DNA of 40,565 nt from a virus. Taxonomy: Duplodnaviria; Heunggongvirae; Uroviricota; Caudoviricetes. The stretch lies in the IMG/VR virus record IMGVR_UViG_2687453529_000006; one strand, given 5' to 3'. The position numbers and the translations under genes are program-made. A model generated the notes under the pieces. It saw only the letters and a list, made by a program, of their open reading frames with translations. It did not search any database and was not told where the DNA came from. The stretch's first letter is position 1; each line of letters starts with the position of its first letter. This document shows, piece after piece, positions 1 through 40,565 of the stretch.

Positions 1-4
1 AAGA

Positions 5-40
5 AATAGGGCTTCCACCTGGGAAGCCCTTTCTTTTTAT
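5..40. terminator. Intrinsic terminator-like hairpin downstream of pspG (possibly shared with an upstream convergent gene)
   Basis: GC-rich inverted repeat (agggcttcc / ggaagccct) followed by T-run on plus strand. Confidence 0.4.
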
Positions 41-165
41 AGTTCGGCTGTATGTAGGGTACAGCACGATGAATCTGTTAGAGGCGCAATAGTGACAGAT
101 TTGATTATCAATTCCTATTTTGTTCTAAGGATAAAACCTTAGGTTGTGATCATCCGCACAATCCC

Positions 166-408
166 TTAGTAACGCCAGCGGTCATAACGCTGATATTTCG
201 GCACTTTTGGTGCTTTAATCGCCTTAATAACCCACACCACCGCAACCGCCAGTAGTAACCACGGCAGCAACTTAATCATCAATGCCAGCATACCGCCGAG
301 GAACATAATGGCCGTCGCCACAACCAGCGCGGCGATAATGCCCAGCAACGAAACGCCGGTGACCATCAGCATGACAAAAAAGCCAATCACAAAAAGTAGT
401 TCCAGCAT
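166..408 (-). CDS. pspG: Phage shock protein G (80 aa inner-membrane protein)
   Basis: Translation from Met71 of the track ORF (MLELLFVIGFFVML...KVPKYQRYDRWRY) matches PspG as I remember it; GGGAGAG Shine-Dalgarno upstream; conserved position next to dusA. Confidence 0.85.
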   Translation of the reverse strand: MLELLFVIGFFVMLMVTGVSLLGIIAALVVATAIMFLGGMLALMIKLLPWLLLAVAVVWVIKAIKAPKVPKYQRYDRWRY

Positions 409-439
409 GATGCTCTCCCAAATATGAAATCTCTTGCAG

Positions 440-462
440 GCATTACAAGAATCATGCCAAAA
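440..462 (-). promoter_or_regulatory. Putative sigma-54 promoter of pspG
   Basis: Minus-strand sequence TGGCATGATTCTTGTA resembles the -24/-12 (GG-N10-GC-type) sigma-54 consensus; pspG is known to be sigma-54/PspF dependent. Confidence 0.35.
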
Positions 463-541
463 ATAATCTATTGATTTAACAGCAAAACGCCCCGCGACGG
501 TGCGCAGGGCGTGGTGAATTTGACTACTTTTTGGTGAAAAG

Positions 542-1579
542 TTAACGCTTATCCGCCACCAGTTTGAGCGCGTGTTCCAGCACATTAATGTCTGCACCCG
601 CTTTATGGGCATTTTCACTTAAATAACGCCGCCACTGCCGCGCGCCAGGAATACCCTGGAACAAGCCCAACATATGCCGGGTAATATGGCCAAGATACGT
701 CCCCTGGCTGAGTTCACGCTCAATGTACGGATACATGGCGCGCACTACCGCCACCGGATCGGCATCGGTATCCGAGGAACCAAAGATCTCTCGGTCTACC
801 GCCGCCAGAATACCCGGATTTTGATACGCTTCGCGCCCGACCATCACGCCATCCATATGTTGCAAATGCGCTTTAGCCTCTTCCAGCGACTTGATACCAC
901 CGTTAATCGACATTGTCAGATGCGGAAAGTCACGCTTCAGTTGATACACACGCGGATAATCGAGCGGCGGGATTTCACGGTTTTCTTTCGGGCTTAACCC
1001 CGAAAGCCAGGCTTTACGAGCATGGATGATGAACATCTCACACTCGCCTTTGCCGGAAACGGTGTTGATGAAATCGCAGAGAAATTCATAGCTGTCCTGG
1101 TCGTCGATGCCAATACGCGTTTTCACCGTCACCGGAATCGACACCACATCGCGCATCGCTTTCACGCAGTCGGCAACCAGCTGCGCATTACCCATCAGAC
1201 ACGCCCCAAACATGCCGTTCTGCACCCGGTCAGACGGGCAGCCGACATTCAGGTTGATCTCATCATATCCGCGCGCTTCTGCCAGCTTTGCACACTGCGC
1301 CAGCGCCGCCGGATCGCTACCGCCCAGTTGCAATGCTACCGGATGTTCTTCTTCACTGTACGCCAGATAATCACCTTTACCGTGAATAATCGCCCCTGTG
1401 GTCACCATTTCGGTATACAGCAACGTATTGCGGGAAAGCAGACGCAAGAAATAGCGGCAATGTCTGTCCGTCCAGTCGAGCATAGGAGCAATGCTAAACC
1501 GAGAATTCCAGTAAACACCATTTTTTTCAGGCATCACGCTGGTTTGATTAATTTTTTGTGTTTCATGATTATCGTGCAT
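542..1579 (-). CDS. dusA: tRNA-dihydrouridine synthase A
   Basis: 345-aa translation with the Dus TIM-barrel signature and near-identity to E. coli DusA over most of its length as remembered; the N-terminal ~30 aa appear divergent. Confidence 0.93.
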
Positions 1580-1582
1580 TTT

Positions 1583-1660
1583 TGAACATTTCAGGCTATT
1601 TTTCTCGCGTTAGGTTCCCGCACAGGTTCCCACGTTTTATGGGAACCCGAAATAACGAGG
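1583..1660. other. dusA/integrase junction with GGTTCCC direct and GGGAACC inverted repeats; candidate attL flank or integrase-binding/regulatory site
   Basis: aggttcccgcacaggttcccacgttttatgggaacc lies between the dusA start and the int start. Confidence 0.35.
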
Positions 1661-1667
1661 TCGTGTA

Positions 1668-2765
1668 ATGGCGTACTATAACATAGAGAAACGACTAAAA
1701 TCCGATGGCACACCACGCTATCGCTGTAATGTGATTATCAAAGAAAAAGGGGTTATCACTTACAGGGAAAGCAAAACATTCCCTAAACATGCTCATGCCA
1801 AAACATGGGGCACACAGAAAGTGATGGAATTAGATCTACATGGCATTCCATCATCAAATGCTGTTGACGGGCTTACAGTCCGTGACTTACTACGCAAATA
1901 TTTAAATGACCCAAATGCCGGAGGTAAAGCAGGCCGTACTAAAAGATATGTGCTGGAACTACTTATGGATAGTGACATTTCTGCGATCAGACTATCTGAA
2001 TTAACAGAAAATGACGTAATAGAACATTGCAGGTTGAGAAACAACGCCGGTGCAGGTCCAGCTACTGTTAGCCACGATGTTAGTTATCTTGGCAGTGTTC
2101 TGGATGCAGCCAAACCTGTATACGGAATTAATTACACATCAAACCCAGCAAAAGCCGCTCGTCCATATCTACTTAAACTTGGTTTAATTGGTAAATCAAA
2201 TCGTCGTAATCGTAGACCAGCATCTGATGAACTAGACATGCTCATTGAAGGCCTTCAACAACGATCTACTCATAAATGCTCAAAAATTCCGTTCGTTGAT
2301 ATCCTCAAATTTTCTGTGTGGTCCTGTATGCGAATCGGAGAAGTATGCCGGTTACGATGGGAAGATCTCGACCAGGAACAAAAATCTATACTAGTAAGAG
2401 ACAGGAAAGATCCACGTAAAAAGGAAGGTAACCATATGAAAGTGGCCTTGCTTGGGGAAGCCTGGGATATCGTCCAACGACAACCCAAAAAATCTGAATT
2501 CATTTTTCCATACAACAGCACTTCTGTTACCGCAGGATTTCAGAGGGTAAGAAGCAAATTAGGTATTAAAGATCTGCGATACCATGATTTGCGTAGAGAA
2601 GGGGCAAGTCGCTTATTTGAGGCTGGTTTTAGTATTGAGGAAGTCGCCCAGGTTACAGGGCATCGTTCATTAAACGTGCTATGGCAGGTATATACCGAAC
2701 TGTATCCAAAATCTTTACATAATCGTTTTGAAGAACTCCAAAGGAGCAGAAATAAGACCTCTTGA
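1668..2765 (+). CDS. int: Tyrosine-type site-specific integrase (dusA-associated integrase family)
   Basis: 365 aa; C-terminal catalytic region with R..HDLRR..Y-type motifs (RIGEV..., HDLRREGAS..., YTELY); GAGG RBS; positioned directly at the dusA 5' end. Confidence 0.9.
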   Translation: MAYYNIEKRLKSDGTPRYRCNVIIKEKGVITYRESKTFPKHAHAKTWGTQKVMELDLHGIPSSNAVDGLTVRDLLRKYLNDPNAGGKAGRTKRYVLELLMDSDISAIRLSELTENDVIEHCRLRNNAGAGPATVSHDVSYLGSVLDAAKPVYGINYTSNPAKAARPYLLKLGLIGKSNRRNRRPASDELDMLIEGLQQRSTHKCSKIPFVDILKFSVWSCMRIGEVCRLRWEDLDQEQKSILVRDRKDPRKKEGNHMKVALLGEAWDIVQRQPKKSEFIFPYNSTSVTAGFQRVRSKLGIKDLRYHDLRREGASRLFEAGFSIEEVAQVTGHRSLNVLWQVYTELYPKSLHNRFEELQRSRNKTS

Positions 2766-2813
2766 CACTGTTTATTCATACAGTTAAAAATAATACTGTA
2801 TACAAACACAGTA
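2762..2813 (+). promoter_or_regulatory. Promoter (TTGACA -35) with two LexA (SOS) boxes upstream of the dinI-like gene
   Basis: Two CTGT-N8-ACAG motifs: CTGTttattcatACAG (~2768-2783) and CTGTatacaaacACAG (~2796-2811); TTGACA at ~2762-2767. Confidence 0.6.
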
Positions 2814-2826
2814 TAGAGGGATTTTT

Positions 2827-3075
2827 ATGCGTATTGAGATCTGCATAGCCAAAGAGAAAATGACTAAAATGCCAAACGGTGCTGTGGATGCGTTAAAGGA
2901 AGAATTAACTCGACGCATCAGTAAGCGTTATGACGATGTAGAGGTGATCGTAAAAGCCACCAGCAACGATGGCCTTTCTGTTACGCGCACCGCCGATAAA
3001 GATTCAGCTAAAACTTTTGTTCAGGAAACTCTGAAAGATACCTGGGAGTCTGCTGACGAGTGGTTTGTTCATTAA
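2827..3075 (+). CDS. dinI: DinI-like DNA damage-inducible protein
   Basis: 82 aa; MRIEICIAK...[15 protein letters not shown] resembles DinI family end to end; GAGGG RBS; LexA boxes upstream. Confidence 0.85.
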
Positions 3076-6861: not shown

Positions 6862-6888
6862 TGTCATAACACTGTGTTACCTGGCTAA

Positions 6889-7488
6889 TCAGAATTTATA
6901 ACCGACACCCACGATGAAACCGTCAGTGCGCCAGTCGCCACTGCCGGAGCCTTCATAAGCAATATCAATGGCCACGGATTCGGTCGGGTTAAACTGCACG
7001 CCAGCTCCCCACGCCAGAGATGTGTTGCTGTGGCGATCGTCATCACTTCCGGTCAGCACATCGTGCGTTTTCCCCTTGTTGTCAGTTACGCGGAGATAAT
7101 CCCCGGAGAAGGTCGACACACGGCTGTAAGCCACACCTGCCATCGCATAAGCACTGAACCATTCATTCACGCGTACAGATGGCCCCGCCATCATGCTGAA
7201 CCAGCGGTTACGCACTGAATCTTCATGCCAGCGGGTATCGCTGTAATGCGTTTTTTGCTCATCTTTGGCATTGGCATAACTGAATGACGTCACCAGCCCC
7301 AGCGTGTCCGTAAATTCATAACGGTATTTCACGTTAATGCCCTTCAGGTCATCACTGCCTGGCATATCAGTATGGGTCTGAAGATACCCGGCGCTTAGTG
7401 TGGACTGATGCTCTGCTGCGCTCGCTGGCGTACCAGCGGCAACCAGCCAGACTACTGCGGACAGAATAACAGCACATAATTTACGCAT
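6889..7488 (-). CDS. lom: Lom/Ail-family outer-membrane protein
   Basis: 199 aa with signal peptide and beta-barrel pattern ending ...GVGYKF; lambda-like position after J. Confidence 0.85.
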   Translation of the reverse strand: MRKLCAVILSAVVWLVAAGTPASAAEHQSTLSAGYLQTHTDMPGSDDLKGINVKYRYEFTDTLGLVTSFSYANAKDEQKTHYSDTRWHEDSVRNRWFSMMAGPSVRVNEWFSAYAMAGVAYSRVSTFSGDYLRVTDNKGKTHDVLTGSDDDRHSNTSLAWGAGVQFNPTESVAIDIAYEGSGSGDWRTDGFIVGVGYKF

Positions 7489-27477: not shown

Positions 27478-27950
27478 ACCTCAATCTCTCTGACCGTTCC
27501 GCCCGCTTCTTTGAATTTTGCAATCAGGCTGTCAGTCTTATGCTCGAACTGACCATAACCAGCGCCAGGCAATGAGGCCCAGATATTGCTGCAACGGTCG
27601 ATTGCCTGACGGATGTCACCGCGATCAATCATTAGTAAAGCGCCACGCTCCTTAATCTGCTGCAATGCAACAGCATCCTGGCTTTTAGGAGAGAAGTCTG
27701 TCAGCCCTAACTGCTTGCGGTAAGCATCCCACCAGCGTGAAAGAAGTTGATAACGGCCTGCGGCTGTTGATTTGAGTTTCGGGTTTAGCGTGACAAGTTT
27801 TCGAGGGTGATCGGAGTAATCAGTGAAGAGTTCGCCACCGACAATAACGTCATAACCGTGGTTACGTGTCGGTTGTCGCCCGTTATCCGTTCCTTCTGAC
27901 CAGGCCACCATATCAAGGAAAGCTTTACGCTGGGGATTTAGTACCTGCAT
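27474..27950 (-). CDS. R: Endolysin (lambda R-type lytic transglycosylase)
   Basis: 158 aa; ...[48 protein letters not shown]... matches lambda R. Confidence 0.95.
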
Positions 27951-27953
27951 AAA

Positions 27954-28289
27954 TTACTCCTTCGAGCTACCAAATTTGTTACCGATTACTCGCATTGCAG
28001 CCCCACGAATAGCATCGACACCGATCAGCCCAACGCCGCCACCAATGGCAACAGAAAGCGATTTGGGCCATCCGACATACTCAAGAGCGGATGCAAAAGT
28101 CAGCGTCAGAGCACCACAGAGCAAAATCTCGAGCGTTTTTCGCTTCCAGCCACCACCACCGCCAAAATAGGCAATGCGCAAGCCAGCCATAACGATCGAC
28201 ATAATCACTGCGCCCAGCGGTGTGTCTCCACGCCACCAGCTCTGTAACAGTTCAAGTAAATCAGGCCAGGAATGAGGATCGTTGTGCAT
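27954..28289 (-). CDS. S: Holin (lambda S-like)
   Basis: 111 aa from Met30 with GGAGGTG RBS; three hydrophobic segments and charged C-terminus; track ORF extends upstream to 28376. Confidence 0.75.
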   Translation of the reverse strand: MHNDPHSWPDLLELLQSWWRGDTPLGAVIMSIVMAGLRIAYFGGGGGWKRKTLEILLCGALTLTFASALEYVGWPKSLSVAIGGGVGLIGVDAIRGAAMRVIGNKFGSSKE

Positions 28290-28376
28290 TTCATAATTCC
28301 CACCTCCGATTACCGGAAGTGCCACAAGTAAAAGGGAAAGAAGCTGGTTATAACGCTGATTTGCAGAAGTGCGCAT

Positions 28377-28400
28377 AAAAAAGGCCGCCCGTAGGCGGCC
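28377..28400 (-). terminator. Intrinsic terminator upstream of the lysis cassette (tR'-like)
   Basis: Minus strand ggccgcc-tacg-ggcggcc followed by TTTTTT. Confidence 0.6.
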
Positions 28401-28418
28401 TCAAAAATCTTATTTTCA

Positions 28419-28622
28419 TCATCGCGAAGGATGGAGGGTTTTATGACGAGGTTTAATGTAAACCTCATAGGAATGAGACAGCTTGTCTACTTCTCTAATT
28501 GGTAATTCCCAACCAGTATTCAGCAGAATACTTTTCTGAGTAGCAGACACTAATACTGAGCCAATCTCAATATTATTTGCAATTGCCACGACCTTCTTGG
28601 TCGTGTGTTTACTATTTTGCAT
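28419..28622 (-). CDS. Small hypothetical protein between Q and the lysis cassette (moron candidate)
   Basis: 67 aa, AT-rich, AAGGAG RBS 7 nt upstream of ATG; flanked by hairpins. Confidence 0.5.
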   Translation of the reverse strand: MQNSKHTTKKVVAIANNIEIGSVLVSATQKSILLNTGWELPIREVDKLSHSYEVYIKPRHKTLHPSR

Positions 28623-28697
28623 GGTGATCTCCTTTCAACCAGTATCACAAATGTGATGAAGATCACAATATCAGCTGTTCAAAAAACATGCAACATA

Positions 28698-28716
28698 AAA
28701 CCCGCCTGAGCGGGTT
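28698..28716 (-). terminator. Hairpin downstream of Q (terminator or qut-associated structure)
   Basis: acccgc-ctga-gcgggt with TTTTATGTT on the minus strand. Confidence 0.3.
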
Positions 28717-28814
28717 TATAAAAGTTAGACATTCAATGCCCATCTTTATGTTAAGGCTAACCATATTTTTTGAAAATTGCAAGCATTGTGCGGAGAAAAT
28801 CATTAAAAATGTAG

Positions 28815-29567
28815 CTATCGTGTCACTTTTTGCAACTGTAACTCTGCGAATGCTTCTTCCTGCCAGCACTTTGTTACCAGTTTATCAATGACGTCTGCAT
28901 ATCCTTTGTACCACTGATAATCCGTCAGGTCTGGTACCAGCTTCTGGACATGACGTCGTGCCAGTGTGGTCGGTAAACGACTAAACCGATTTCCATTGCA
29001 ACGCCCACAAATCTTATAAACAGGCGCGCCATGAAGCCGGGTTCTTTTTTCATCCAGGACAATGCCTTTACCCTTACACCCTCTGCAAGCCGTGCTGACT
29101 TCTCCCTTACCATGGCAATGCTGACATAATTCCTTCACCCACTCTTCCTTGATAACAGACTCACCGCTTCTGGAGTGTTTCACCACTTCGCGCAATACAT
29201 TATGAAATCCAGTACCAGCACAATGCTCACAGCGAGCCTTACTTGCCGCAGACCTGGAATAATCAGCAAAGGCAAAATTCACAAGGTAAGTGATGATCTG
29301 TAACCGGGTTTCTTCACTCAATTTGTTCAATGTCGGGTTATCCAGTGCCATCGCGTAATTGAGCAGACCTTCAATCGCAAACTGAGGATCCTGAACACCA
29401 ACTTTTGCCAGGAATAAGGCAAACCCAAGCGGTGCTTTCGACTGCACCATCCCCTGCGCAGCCATCACATCCGTAATCGTTAAACCACCCGAGCCTGTCG
29501 CCGGTGCCTCATCGCTCAATTTGGGAGATTTTGGGGAGTAATATTTTGGTAAGGCTTCAAGGTTCAT
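28815..29567 (-). CDS. Q: Late-gene antitermination protein Q (QuuQ-like, CxxC zinc-finger)
   Basis: 250 aa with multiple CxxC pairs; resembles E. coli Qin QuuQ as remembered; directly upstream of lysis genes. Confidence 0.8.
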   Translation of the reverse strand: MNLEALPKYYSPKSPKLSDEAPATGSGGLTITDVMAAQGMVQSKAPLGFALFLAKVGVQDPQFAIEGLLNYAMALDNPTLNKLSEETRLQIITYLVNFAFADYSRSAASKARCEHCAGTGFHNVLREVVKHSRSGESVIKEEWVKELCQHCHGKGEVSTACRGCKGKGIVLDEKRTRLHGAPVYKICGRCNGNRFSRLPTTLARRHVQKLVPDLTDYQWYKGYADVIDKLVTKCWQEEAFAELQLQKVTR

Positions 29568-39576: not shown

Positions 39577-39996
39577 TTACTCATCATCAATAGATGATAC
39601 GCAATATTTATTTTTAAATTTAAGGTTCTTTGGCGTAACTTCATCAGATATATCAAAACCGTCCAGAATTCTATTGAATGTAGCTTCTGGCATATCATCA
39701 TGAACAGAAATCTCACCCGATCGCTGCTTTCTAACCATGTTATCCACTCGCCAAATTATAGCTTCAGCGTAAACAACATAACTTGGATGCTTGATAAAGC
39801 GATGATCACCAGAATTCAAGACGCAAGACGGATCGTGGGGGACACCATCCTTGATACTAGAAATATTAACAACTAAAACACAATAACAATCGTTAACGGG
39901 GTAATAAACAGGATCATTACAAATCACATGAAGATGATTGCATGGCCCAGTTGGGGCAAGCACAGTTCCTTTCCTGTATGGCTGATAATCCGTCAT
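39577..39996 (-). CDS. Unrecognised 139-aa protein translationally coupled to the PanA-like gene (candidate toxin/effector)
   Basis: Start overlaps upstream stop (ATGA); low GC; contains an R-x6-H stretch (RSGEISVH). Confidence 0.6.
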   Translation of the reverse strand: MTDYQPYRKGTVLAPTGPCNHLHVICNDPVYYPVNDCYCVLVVNISSIKDGVPHDPSCVLNSGDHRFIKHPSYVVYAEAIIWRVDNMVRKQRSGEISVHDDMPEATFNRILDGFDISDEVTPKNLKFKNKYCVSSIDDE

Positions 39997-40565
39997 GATA
40001 ATTGCAAAGAAAATTCCTTAAGTTTCTGAGATTCTTCCATTTTGCCAATTATACGATTAGCCTCATCCTCGCTTTTACCCTCACTGATCAGCATTTCTTT
40101 CAGGTCTATAGGCTTACGAGAATTGCCAGAATTATGCCACTCTGGACAAACGCTTTCTAAATGCGTCATGTTTGCGAGATCAAATCGGTTCATATGCCCA
40201 TACAGAGAATAGATTTCATCTAAAATCCGGATATCTGCACGGCTCAACTCATCAAAGACCTCGTCTGCATCCATTTCCCTCGGATCTGAACGCAACAACA
40301 CATCATGCCCGTTCGTCTCTATCAAGTTGTACCAGTAGTCACCAATGCCTTCAGCCTTACCACGAATCAAGTTCAGCGTATTCGACATGACTGGACCAAA
40401 TTTCATAGAGTAAAGACTATCTTCGCCGATCATCCTGCCATGCTTCAAAATCGACTTGCGGTTAGACAGATAGAGCAGCTTCATCAATTTCAGATATGCC
40501 ATGCGCCCACCTCGCTTAAGAAGTAGGTATGCAGCCATTTGAGCTACTTTTTCTTCGCAAAACAT
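39993..40565 (-). CDS. Panacea-domain (DUF4065, PanA/GepA-like) protein, N-terminus probably beyond the window
   Basis: ...AYLKLMKLLYLSNRKSILKHGRMIGEDSLYSMKFGPVMSNT... resembles the Panacea domain core as remembered; ORF reaches the window edge. Confidence 0.6.
   Translation of the reverse strand: MFCEEKVAQMAAYLLLKRGGRMAYLKLMKLLYLSNRKSILKHGRMIGEDSLYSMKFGPVMSNTLNLIRGKAEGIGDYWYNLIETNGHDVLLRSDPREMDADEVFDELSRADIRILDEIYSLYGHMNRFDLANMTHLESVCPEWHNSGNSRKPIDLKEMLISEGKSEDEANRIIGKMEESQKLKEFSLQLS

Follow-up and report, generated by a model that had tools for sequence, protein, structure and literature searches.

In phage lambda and in Shiga toxin (Stx) phages, the late promoter pR' is constitutive and its transcripts are terminated at tR' in lysogens (PMC7547250). 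The general role of the Q-binding element (QBE) and of the sigma-70-dependent pause element (SDPE) in Q control has been described, and Yin et al. (2022) assign PF03589 to the Q-lambda family, PF06530 to the Q21 family and PF06323 to the Q82 family (PMC9388147). Morons are defined by four criteria as promoter-gene-terminator cassettes inserted in a phage genome (PMC3714127). The interval separating Q from the lysis genes is the place where lambdoid prophages carry conversion genes such as those of Shiga toxin. Here we analyzed this interval in a DNA stretch of 40,565 nucleotides (nt), hereafter called the window (IMG/VR record IMGVR_UViG_2687453529_000006), which corresponds to a lambdoid, HK97-like prophage of E. 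coli inserted next to dusA, and we describe a 67-amino-acid (aa) open reading frame (ORF) located between the Q gene and the holin gene. We estimate at about 60% the probability that the interval combines a Q-lambda-type late control unit with a self-contained moron-type cassette, inserted between tR' and a second terminator named T2.

The late genes of the window are carried by the minus strand in the order Q, interval, holin, endolysin and spanin, and a search with positions 28300-28900 found 100% identity with the chromosomes of Ecol_881, ECONIH1 and others. The interval appears to be organized as a slot bordered by a terminator at each end (tR' and T2) with interchangeable small cassettes inside, and one such cassette can be fully delimited here, with a promoter signature, an operator-like palindrome, a 5' stem-loop, a Shine-Dalgarno (SD) sequence and a gene.

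A predicted late control unit of the lambda type

The gene at 29567-28815 (minus strand) encodes a 250-aa QuuQ/YdfT-like antiterminator, annotated as 'antitermination protein' by PGAP and matching phrog_127 and PF03589 (E 2e-53), so that the protein falls in the Q-lambda family following the family naming of PMC9388147. Directly 3' of this gene, pR' is predicted at 28754-28782 (minus strand), with a -35 TTGCAA (28782-28777), a 17-nt spacer and a -10 TAGCCT (28759-28754), judged by a lambda-like layout and by an alignment with relatives that took in SfV, mEp460, a Stx2k phage and Citrobacter prophages. The full window reading is TTGCAA-17-TAGCCT-TAACAT-AAAGATGGGC, to be compared with TTGACT-17-TAAATT-TGACTC-AACGATGGG for lambda pR' itself and, for the SfV, mEp460, Stx2c and Stx2k phages whose Q proteins are 96-97% identical, with TTGCA(A/T), a 17-nt spacer, the -10, 6 nt and AACGATGGGC. 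The 17-nt spacer is almost invariant across the phages having this Q and is a candidate QBE. The initial transcribed block is thus AAAGATGGGC in the window, AACGATGGGC in relatives and AACGATGGG at +1 to +9 in lambda. In lambda, AACGAT at +1 to +6 is the SDPE. By sequence comparison, the predicted +1 of the window (28747) opens a putative SDPE, AAAGAT followed by GGGC (28738-28747, minus strand), and a -10-like pause element is found, at the level of sequence, in the initially transcribed region of a promoter lying directly 3' of Q.

The pause block is followed by hairpin 1 (28694-28717, minus strand), an 8-bp stem and then UUUUAU. This hairpin, AAACCCGC-TCAG-GCGGGTTT (28717-28698), starts 98 nt past the Q stop codon and has a folding free energy (dG) of -12.7 kcal/mol with a z score of -3.5 against shuffled sequences, in agreement with the initial annotation of this DNA, which had placed a hairpin about 100 nt after Q. 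A hairpin and a T-run follow the pause block in all aligned relatives, and the SfV record (NC_003444) annotates it as 'putative rho-independent terminator'. Judged by its fold, by this annotation and by the alignments, hairpin 1 is the predicted tR' of a lambda-type late promoter. That pR' and tR' should lie in this interval had been expected, and the alignment with same-Q phages and the lambda layout bear this out for pR', the pause element and tR'.

The unit resembles that of lambda by its Q-lambda family Q, by a putative pause element of the AACGAT type that covers +1 to +6 and precedes GGG, and by the nearby predicted intrinsic terminator. It differs from the lambda and StxS leaders by the predicted leader RNA of ~51-54 nt (from 28747 to about 28694), by a weaker -10 (TAGCCT) and by an interrupted U-tract in tR', which reads UUUUAU in the window and UUUUUU in Citrobacter (one T-to-A change). 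The pR' leader of lambda, known as 6S RNA, is 194 nt long. StxS of Stx phages measures 258 nt and is processed to 74 nt (PMC7547250). The window ceases to be homologous to SfV, mEp460 and Stx2k phages just past the T-run of tR', upstream of the 67-aa ORF, so that the ORF does not align with a non-coding pR'/tR' RNA of relatives, a possibility that the initial annotation had named as counting against its proposal. Two other ORFs of this region, at 28688-28891 (plus strand) and 28663-28869 (minus strand), with no family match and overlapping the conserved stretch around pR', were regarded as spurious.

The 67-aa ORF and its protein family

The ORF starts at an ATG (28622), 72 nt past the last position of the tR' T-run (28694), and stops at 28421-28419; since it lies downstream of tR', it is not part of the leader RNA. 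Its SD sequence AAGGAG (28634-28629) is placed 6 nt 5' of the ATG, the whole feature covering 28419-28634 on the minus strand, and its GC content is 0.39 compared with 0.50 for the whole window, so that the ribosome-binding site and the AT-richness reported by the initial annotation are both recovered. The same coding sequence is called by PGAP as the hypothetical protein WP_001181554.1, and residues 1-67 match positions 1-67 of the 67-position profile phrog_25981, a PHROG of unknown function, with an E value of 3.8e-51. The search for homologues that had been suggested gave 8 matches when 1.84 billion cluster representatives were scanned exhaustively with a profile, and about 15 clusters (15 as counted) in a word-indexed profile search. 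With lengths of 61-82 aa, the members show 31-78% identity with the window protein and have in common the motifs L.TGW..P, SH.YEV and H...HPS.W. The SD sequence is present in every copy of the ten cassettes described below. The ratio of nonsynonymous to synonymous substitution rates (dN/dS) is 0.23-0.30 in distant pairs and 0.36-0.49 in close pairs when the first seven codons, which vary, are left out; with this N-terminal part counted, it reaches up to 0.7-0.9 for the close relatives taken by themselves (78% identity). Taken together, these comparisons indicate that the 67-aa ORF is a genuine gene of a small orphan family.

The proteins of the family are soluble and mostly basic, with an isoelectric point (pI) of 8.9-10.2 in 11 of 12 members and of 9.9 for the window protein. 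An AlphaFold2 (AF2) model of the latter, with a mean predicted local distance difference test (pLDDT) score of 73, contains five beta strands, and the protein is thus predicted to be all-beta. Of 5,426 complete E. coli genomes, 31 carry the gene, always with at least 99% identity; it is also found on at least 1,000 assembled contigs of a large collection and, in IMG/VR, on only 3 near-identical contigs. A tblastn search of the ORF against 50,697 phage records gave zero matches, a scan of GTDB species representatives found no relative at the sensitivity used, and no family, fold or defence-system match for the 67-aa protein was found.

Two observations concern the databases and the gene itself. 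The protein collection places the 67-aa protein in a cluster of 753 members, of which the representative and those with a name are lambda-family holins of dissimilar sequence; this clustering artefact hides the protein's own cluster from homology searches. An inverted repeat, CACGACC-AAGAA-GGTCGTG, is found at 28587-28605, inside codons 6-12 of the ORF; it was flagged as terminator-like on the plus (antisense) strand and is mostly retained in the Citrobacter copies.

A predicted promoter, a palindrome and a 5' stem-loop precede the gene

The region upstream of the gene was compared in ten cassettes from at least seven lineages, anchored on a palindrome. This comparison points to a promoter, P2, predicted at 28665-28693 (minus strand) with a -35 TTGCAT (28693-28688), a 17-nt spacer and a -10 TATTGT (28670-28665). 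In all ten cassettes the TTG of the -35 and the T, A and final T of the -10, which are the bases of greatest weight for sigma-70, are invariant (TTG, 16-17 nt, TAnnnT), and the spacer is 17 nt long, or 16 in one lineage, with sequences that diverge. The predicted start, at about 28657 and 8 nt past the -10, is a purine in 10/10 cassettes. A CII-type TTGC-N6-TTGC was looked for at the P2 -35 by inspection of the cassette alignment and is not present.

The predicted P2 transcript would begin with a stem-loop, AUCAC-AUUU-GUGAU (28644-28657, minus strand). A hairpin starting at the predicted +1, which is its first paired base, is found in each of the ten cassettes, with compensatory changes in three of six pairs (for example UCACA/UGUGA vs UCGCA/UGCG), 90% of the cells paired, and none of 500 shuffles reaching the covariation score. 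Such 5'-terminal structures protect E. coli mRNAs from decay that depends on the 5' end, and Emory, Bouvet and Belasco reportedly showed in 1992 that stem-loops of the ompA 5' untranslated region type stabilize E. coli mRNAs. The cassette hairpin is like the ompA-type structures in being short, conserved, located at or within 1 nt of the predicted 5' end and subject to compensatory changes; it is unlike them in that its stem has only 5-8 bp and the 5' end is a predicted one.

The palindrome TGTGATCTTCATCACA (28652-28667, minus strand) covers the P2 -10 and start and contains an exact match to the CRP core TGTGA-N6-TCACA, the sole one in the window for 0.06 expected. At least nine of the ten core positions are kept, at the same place, in nine of the ten cassettes, with a variable N6. 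We looked for covariation between the two halves and saw none; since the halves do not covary, the constraint bears on the DNA sequence and not on RNA pairing. By our own count, the window palindrome agrees at 18 of 22 positions with the CRP consensus AAATGTGATCTAGATCACATTT. Relative to the predicted P2 start its centre is at about -1 to -2, and the ATG comes 37-45 nt after this centre. Because the palindrome overlaps the start site, only repression by occlusion is plausible. Class II activation of the ORF by CRP was rejected, as a start located 41.5 nt from the palindrome centre would fall within the coding region. An extended -10 (TGTGATACT) downstream of the window palindrome was also discarded, not being conserved in relatives. 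Control by cyclic AMP (cAMP)-CRP via the palindrome is a tentative hypothesis to which we would give clearly less than even odds, because the cassette of L027 is devoid of the left half.

The tR'-to-T2 stretch is an exchangeable cargo slot

In each of the ten loci (at least seven lineages), a small gene of this family is found on the late strand, after Q and ahead of the lysis cassette. All three Q families are found upstream: PF03589 in the window and in the Citrobacter loci L002-L010, PF06323 in L014 and L015, and PF06530 or DUF1133 in L017, L018, L020, L022, L024 and L026. Wherever the other side was sequenced, the small gene is directly 5' of the holin gene, except in Citrobacter, where the gene of a 350-aa N6/N4 methylase is inserted between the terminator of the ORF and the holin. 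Among the loci with that side sequenced, at least three kinds of lysis cassette follow, with holins of the lambda S type, holin_8 together with holin_3_7, or unassigned 100-106-aa proteins.

A prophage of E. coli strain Q5 (NZ_CP127255.1) has its Q, pR', tR', T2, holin leader and holin in common with the window, and contains a different cargo in the slot. The SfV slot is occupied by orf47, a methylase and another terminator, and that of mEp460 by cargo other than the 67-aa ORF. Since Q5 and SfV hold different cargo there, the tR'-to-T2 stretch is an exchangeable cargo slot, and the constant place of the gene before the holin may be a reflection of this slot. The ORF is thus, as the initial annotation had proposed, extra cargo at a known Q-to-lysis cargo site where other relatives carry other cargo. 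It occupies the same slot as previously described Q-to-S cargo (stx with tRNAs in Stx phages, orf47 with a DNA methylase in SfV), and in phages whose Q is 96-97% identical this slot is filled by stx2 or the methylase. Unlike these, the slot of the window contains a single 67-aa gene, with no sequence similarity to stx, orf47 or the methylase. Qin carries cspB/cspF in its Q-to-S interval.

The distal end of the slot is T2 (28375-28402, minus strand), a 9-bp GC-rich stem with T6 that reads GAGGCCGCC-TACG-GGCGGCCTT followed by TTTTAT and has a dG of -19.7 with a z score of -4.6. A T2 follows the ORF in every homologous cassette. The motif GGCYGCC-N4-GGCGGCCTTTTTTAT was found near-identical in at least 120 IMG/VR contigs and in many gene contexts, 0 of them with this ORF family upstream, and in E. 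coli Q5, where the cargo is a different one, both T2 and the holin leader are the same as in the window. For both reasons the conservation of T2 was rejected as a mark of cassette membership, and T2 is a generic terminator closing the exchangeable slot, with no special partnership with the ORF or the holin start.

The initial annotation described a strong terminator abutting the holin gene. Its strength is supported by the fold; the abutment is not, because T2 touches only the longest holin ORF (ATG at 28376, 140 aa), in which the PF05106 match begins at residue 31, and PGAP places the start at 28289. The first gene of the lysis cassette is this lambda-family holin of 111 aa (27954-28289, minus strand; PGAP, PF05106), whose start is preceded by GGAGG at 28307-28303 and separated from the T2 T-run by 86 nt.

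Further observations on these elements can be mentioned. Among the matches listed, the genes found downstream of the T2-type motif include holins and others. The Q5 cargo is an unannotated 80-aa Cys-rich ORF (L152, 2778-3020, minus strand) with several CxxC pairs, zinc-ribbon-like, and looks like a second, different small-protein cargo. In two Q21-family prophages (L020, 3850-3950; L026, 3200-3290), an oppositely oriented gene comes directly after Q, and a promoter-like TTAACG-18/19-TAGTGT with a weak hairpin stands just upstream of the small-ORF cassette, possibly as a displaced pR'-tR'.

Proposed functioning of the cassette and alternative explanations

We propose that in the lysogen the late control unit, made of pR', of a lambda-like pause element for sigma-70 (+1 to +6) at which Q would be loaded, and of tR', would yield only a leader RNA of ~50 nt. 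The cassette, made of the weak sigma-70 promoter P2, of a stem-loop at the mRNA 5' end, of a strong SD and of the 67-aa gene, would have its ORF transcribed from P2 in the lysogen as an mRNA of ~280 nt, which the 5'-terminal stem-loop would stabilize, and cAMP-CRP or another dimeric regulator bound to the palindrome would shut P2 off. T2 would end the P2 transcripts before the lethal lysis genes and so insulate the holin. After induction, Q-loaded polymerase coming from pR' would pass both tR' and T2, and the ORF would then also be the first late gene. With such an organization the gene is probably an autonomous moron and not purely Q-dependent cargo, and our best guess for its product is an accessory lysogen or late-phase factor, possibly binding nucleic acids.

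Like the lambdoid morons (bor and lom of lambda, the morons of HK97), the cassette adds a gene of deviant GC at the junction of two conserved phage modules; a sigma-70-type promoter signature precedes this gene, an intrinsic terminator follows it, and in collinear relatives the cassette is missing or other cargo takes its place. Unlike those morons, it has a generic terminator shared with the holin leader and a promoter predicted from sequence. Three of the four criteria of the moron definition are recognized at the sequence level (an intrinsic terminator, a deviant GC content, and different cargo standing in its place in collinear relatives), and for the fourth, the promoter, P2 is a prediction drawn from comparative evidence, with 7 of 12 consensus positions.

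Several points weigh against this moron-type reading. With its 7/12 match, P2 was missed by the consensus scan, and what supports it is comparative and comes from 10 related sequences. The 5' stem-loop of the window, taken alone, is weak (dG -4.0, z -0.7). The palindrome has lost its left half in L027, and its position fits none of the activating CRP classes (centre near -41.5, -61.5 etc.). T2 is not owned by the cassette, being a generic terminator shared with the holin leader. The window copy ends with ...HPSR, three residues early, as the Citrobacter TGG TGG AAG TAA has become TGA TGA AAA TAA, and it is devoid of the conserved C-terminal Trp that ends most family members; this shorter form is common to all 31 E. 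coli genomes, and the copy may be impaired. Finally, the function proposed for the protein is a guess, because the protein has no informative homologue or fold match.

The initial annotation suggested that the ORF may be Q-dependent cargo. Part of this holds, as the ORF is downstream of tR' and Q-modified polymerase would transcribe it; that it depends purely on Q is, in view of the P2 signature and of the covarying stem-loop, probably not the case. Under a purely Q-dependent regime the ORF would have no promoter of its own, would be silent in the lysogen behind tR' and would be made only on Q read-through, acting in the lytic cycle, for example in tuning lysis timing, given its place next to the holin in most lineages. 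The late-strand location downstream of pR' and tR', the position immediately 5' of the holin gene, seen in six lineages whose holins are of different types, and the weak consensus match of P2 are all in line with it. We nevertheless find it unlikely, as an invariant TTG/TA/T at promoter spacing, together with a covarying hairpin at +1, is hard to explain otherwise than by a start site at this place. Its link with lysis is further weakened by the Citrobacter methylase gene standing between ORF and holin and by the unrelated cargo that fills the slot in other prophages, which argues that the position of the ORF reflects the slot and not a link with lysis. Still less credible, to the point that we give it hardly any weight, is the idea that the ORF is spurious and that the region makes a non-coding RNA, either an extended pR' leader or a small RNA like lambda 6S RNA or StxS. 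Lambda does have an annotated orf-64 inside its pR'-tR' leader, and the dN/dS values of up to 0.7-0.9 in close relatives, N-terminus included, would suit such an RNA. However, the ORF of the window lies after tR' and outside the leader, the reading frame, length, motifs and SD persist in homologues down to 31% identity, more divergent pairs have a lower dN/dS (0.23-0.30), and an Rfam scan of 27900-29000 (E<=10) gave sub-threshold noise only, isrK for example scoring 12.8 bits for a gathering threshold of 50.

As for the palindrome, it could be something other than a CRP site: the operator of a phage-encoded regulator, which might be the basic 67-aa protein itself and would then give autoregulation, or two halves kept for separate reasons, the left one for promoter-proximal needs and the right one only as the 5' arm of the RNA hairpin. 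The right half indeed covaries with its downstream complement and not with the left half, promoter and hairpin are kept in L027 despite the absence of the left half there, and seven of ten copies have GTCACA where the CRP consensus prefers ATCACA; the basic pI of 11 of the 12 family proteins would suit autoregulation. On the other hand, the G, G, A and T that follow the -10 and form part of the left half-site are conserved in 8-10 of the ten copies and are not needed by sigma-70, the half-sites stand exactly N6 apart with a spacer that varies, E. coli and Citrobacter, the hosts known so far, are enterobacteria having CRP, and the window copy matches 18 of the 22 positions of the consensus AAATGTGATCTAGATCACATTT. 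We regard this alternative as rather doubtful, although not as much so as pure Q dependence. A more far-reaching version of CRP control, in which cAMP-CRP sitting on the P2 start would gate the small protein to low cAMP in the lysogen and the protein would act on late transcription or lysis, is a long shot; whichever the Q family or the holin type, the gene is always the first one past tR' and mostly the neighbour of the holin gene. If true, a CRP-gated module would couple the carbon status of the host to the late or lysis programme of the prophage by way of a protein family without known relatives or fold, and the gated protein might bind nucleic acid or polymerase at the late operon. The moron-type cassette that we favour is, in kind, an ordinary moron, and its payoff therefore depends on the role of the protein.

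Other features of the prophage

The sequence around the holin start differs slightly between the window and its relatives. In relatives it reads ATGAAAATGCAT, that is M-K-M-H-N, a lambda-S-like dual start (for example L152, 2640-2660). The window reads ATGAAATGCAC (28284-28307, minus strand), with one A fewer, which shifts the first Met out of the holin frame, leaves the 111-aa form as the only possible holin and opens the upstream frame to 28376, giving the misleading 140-aa ORF. The 111-aa and 113-aa forms are both common in databases.

The endolysin gene follows at 27950-27474 (minus strand). In the terminal regions of the window (1-2800 and 39900-40565), the prophage, which lies beside dusA, encodes a tyrosine integrase at 1667-2764. 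Further accessory genes of the prophage encode a DinI-like protein (2826-3074), an Ail/Lom protein (6888-7487) and a Panacea-domain protein (39992-40564).

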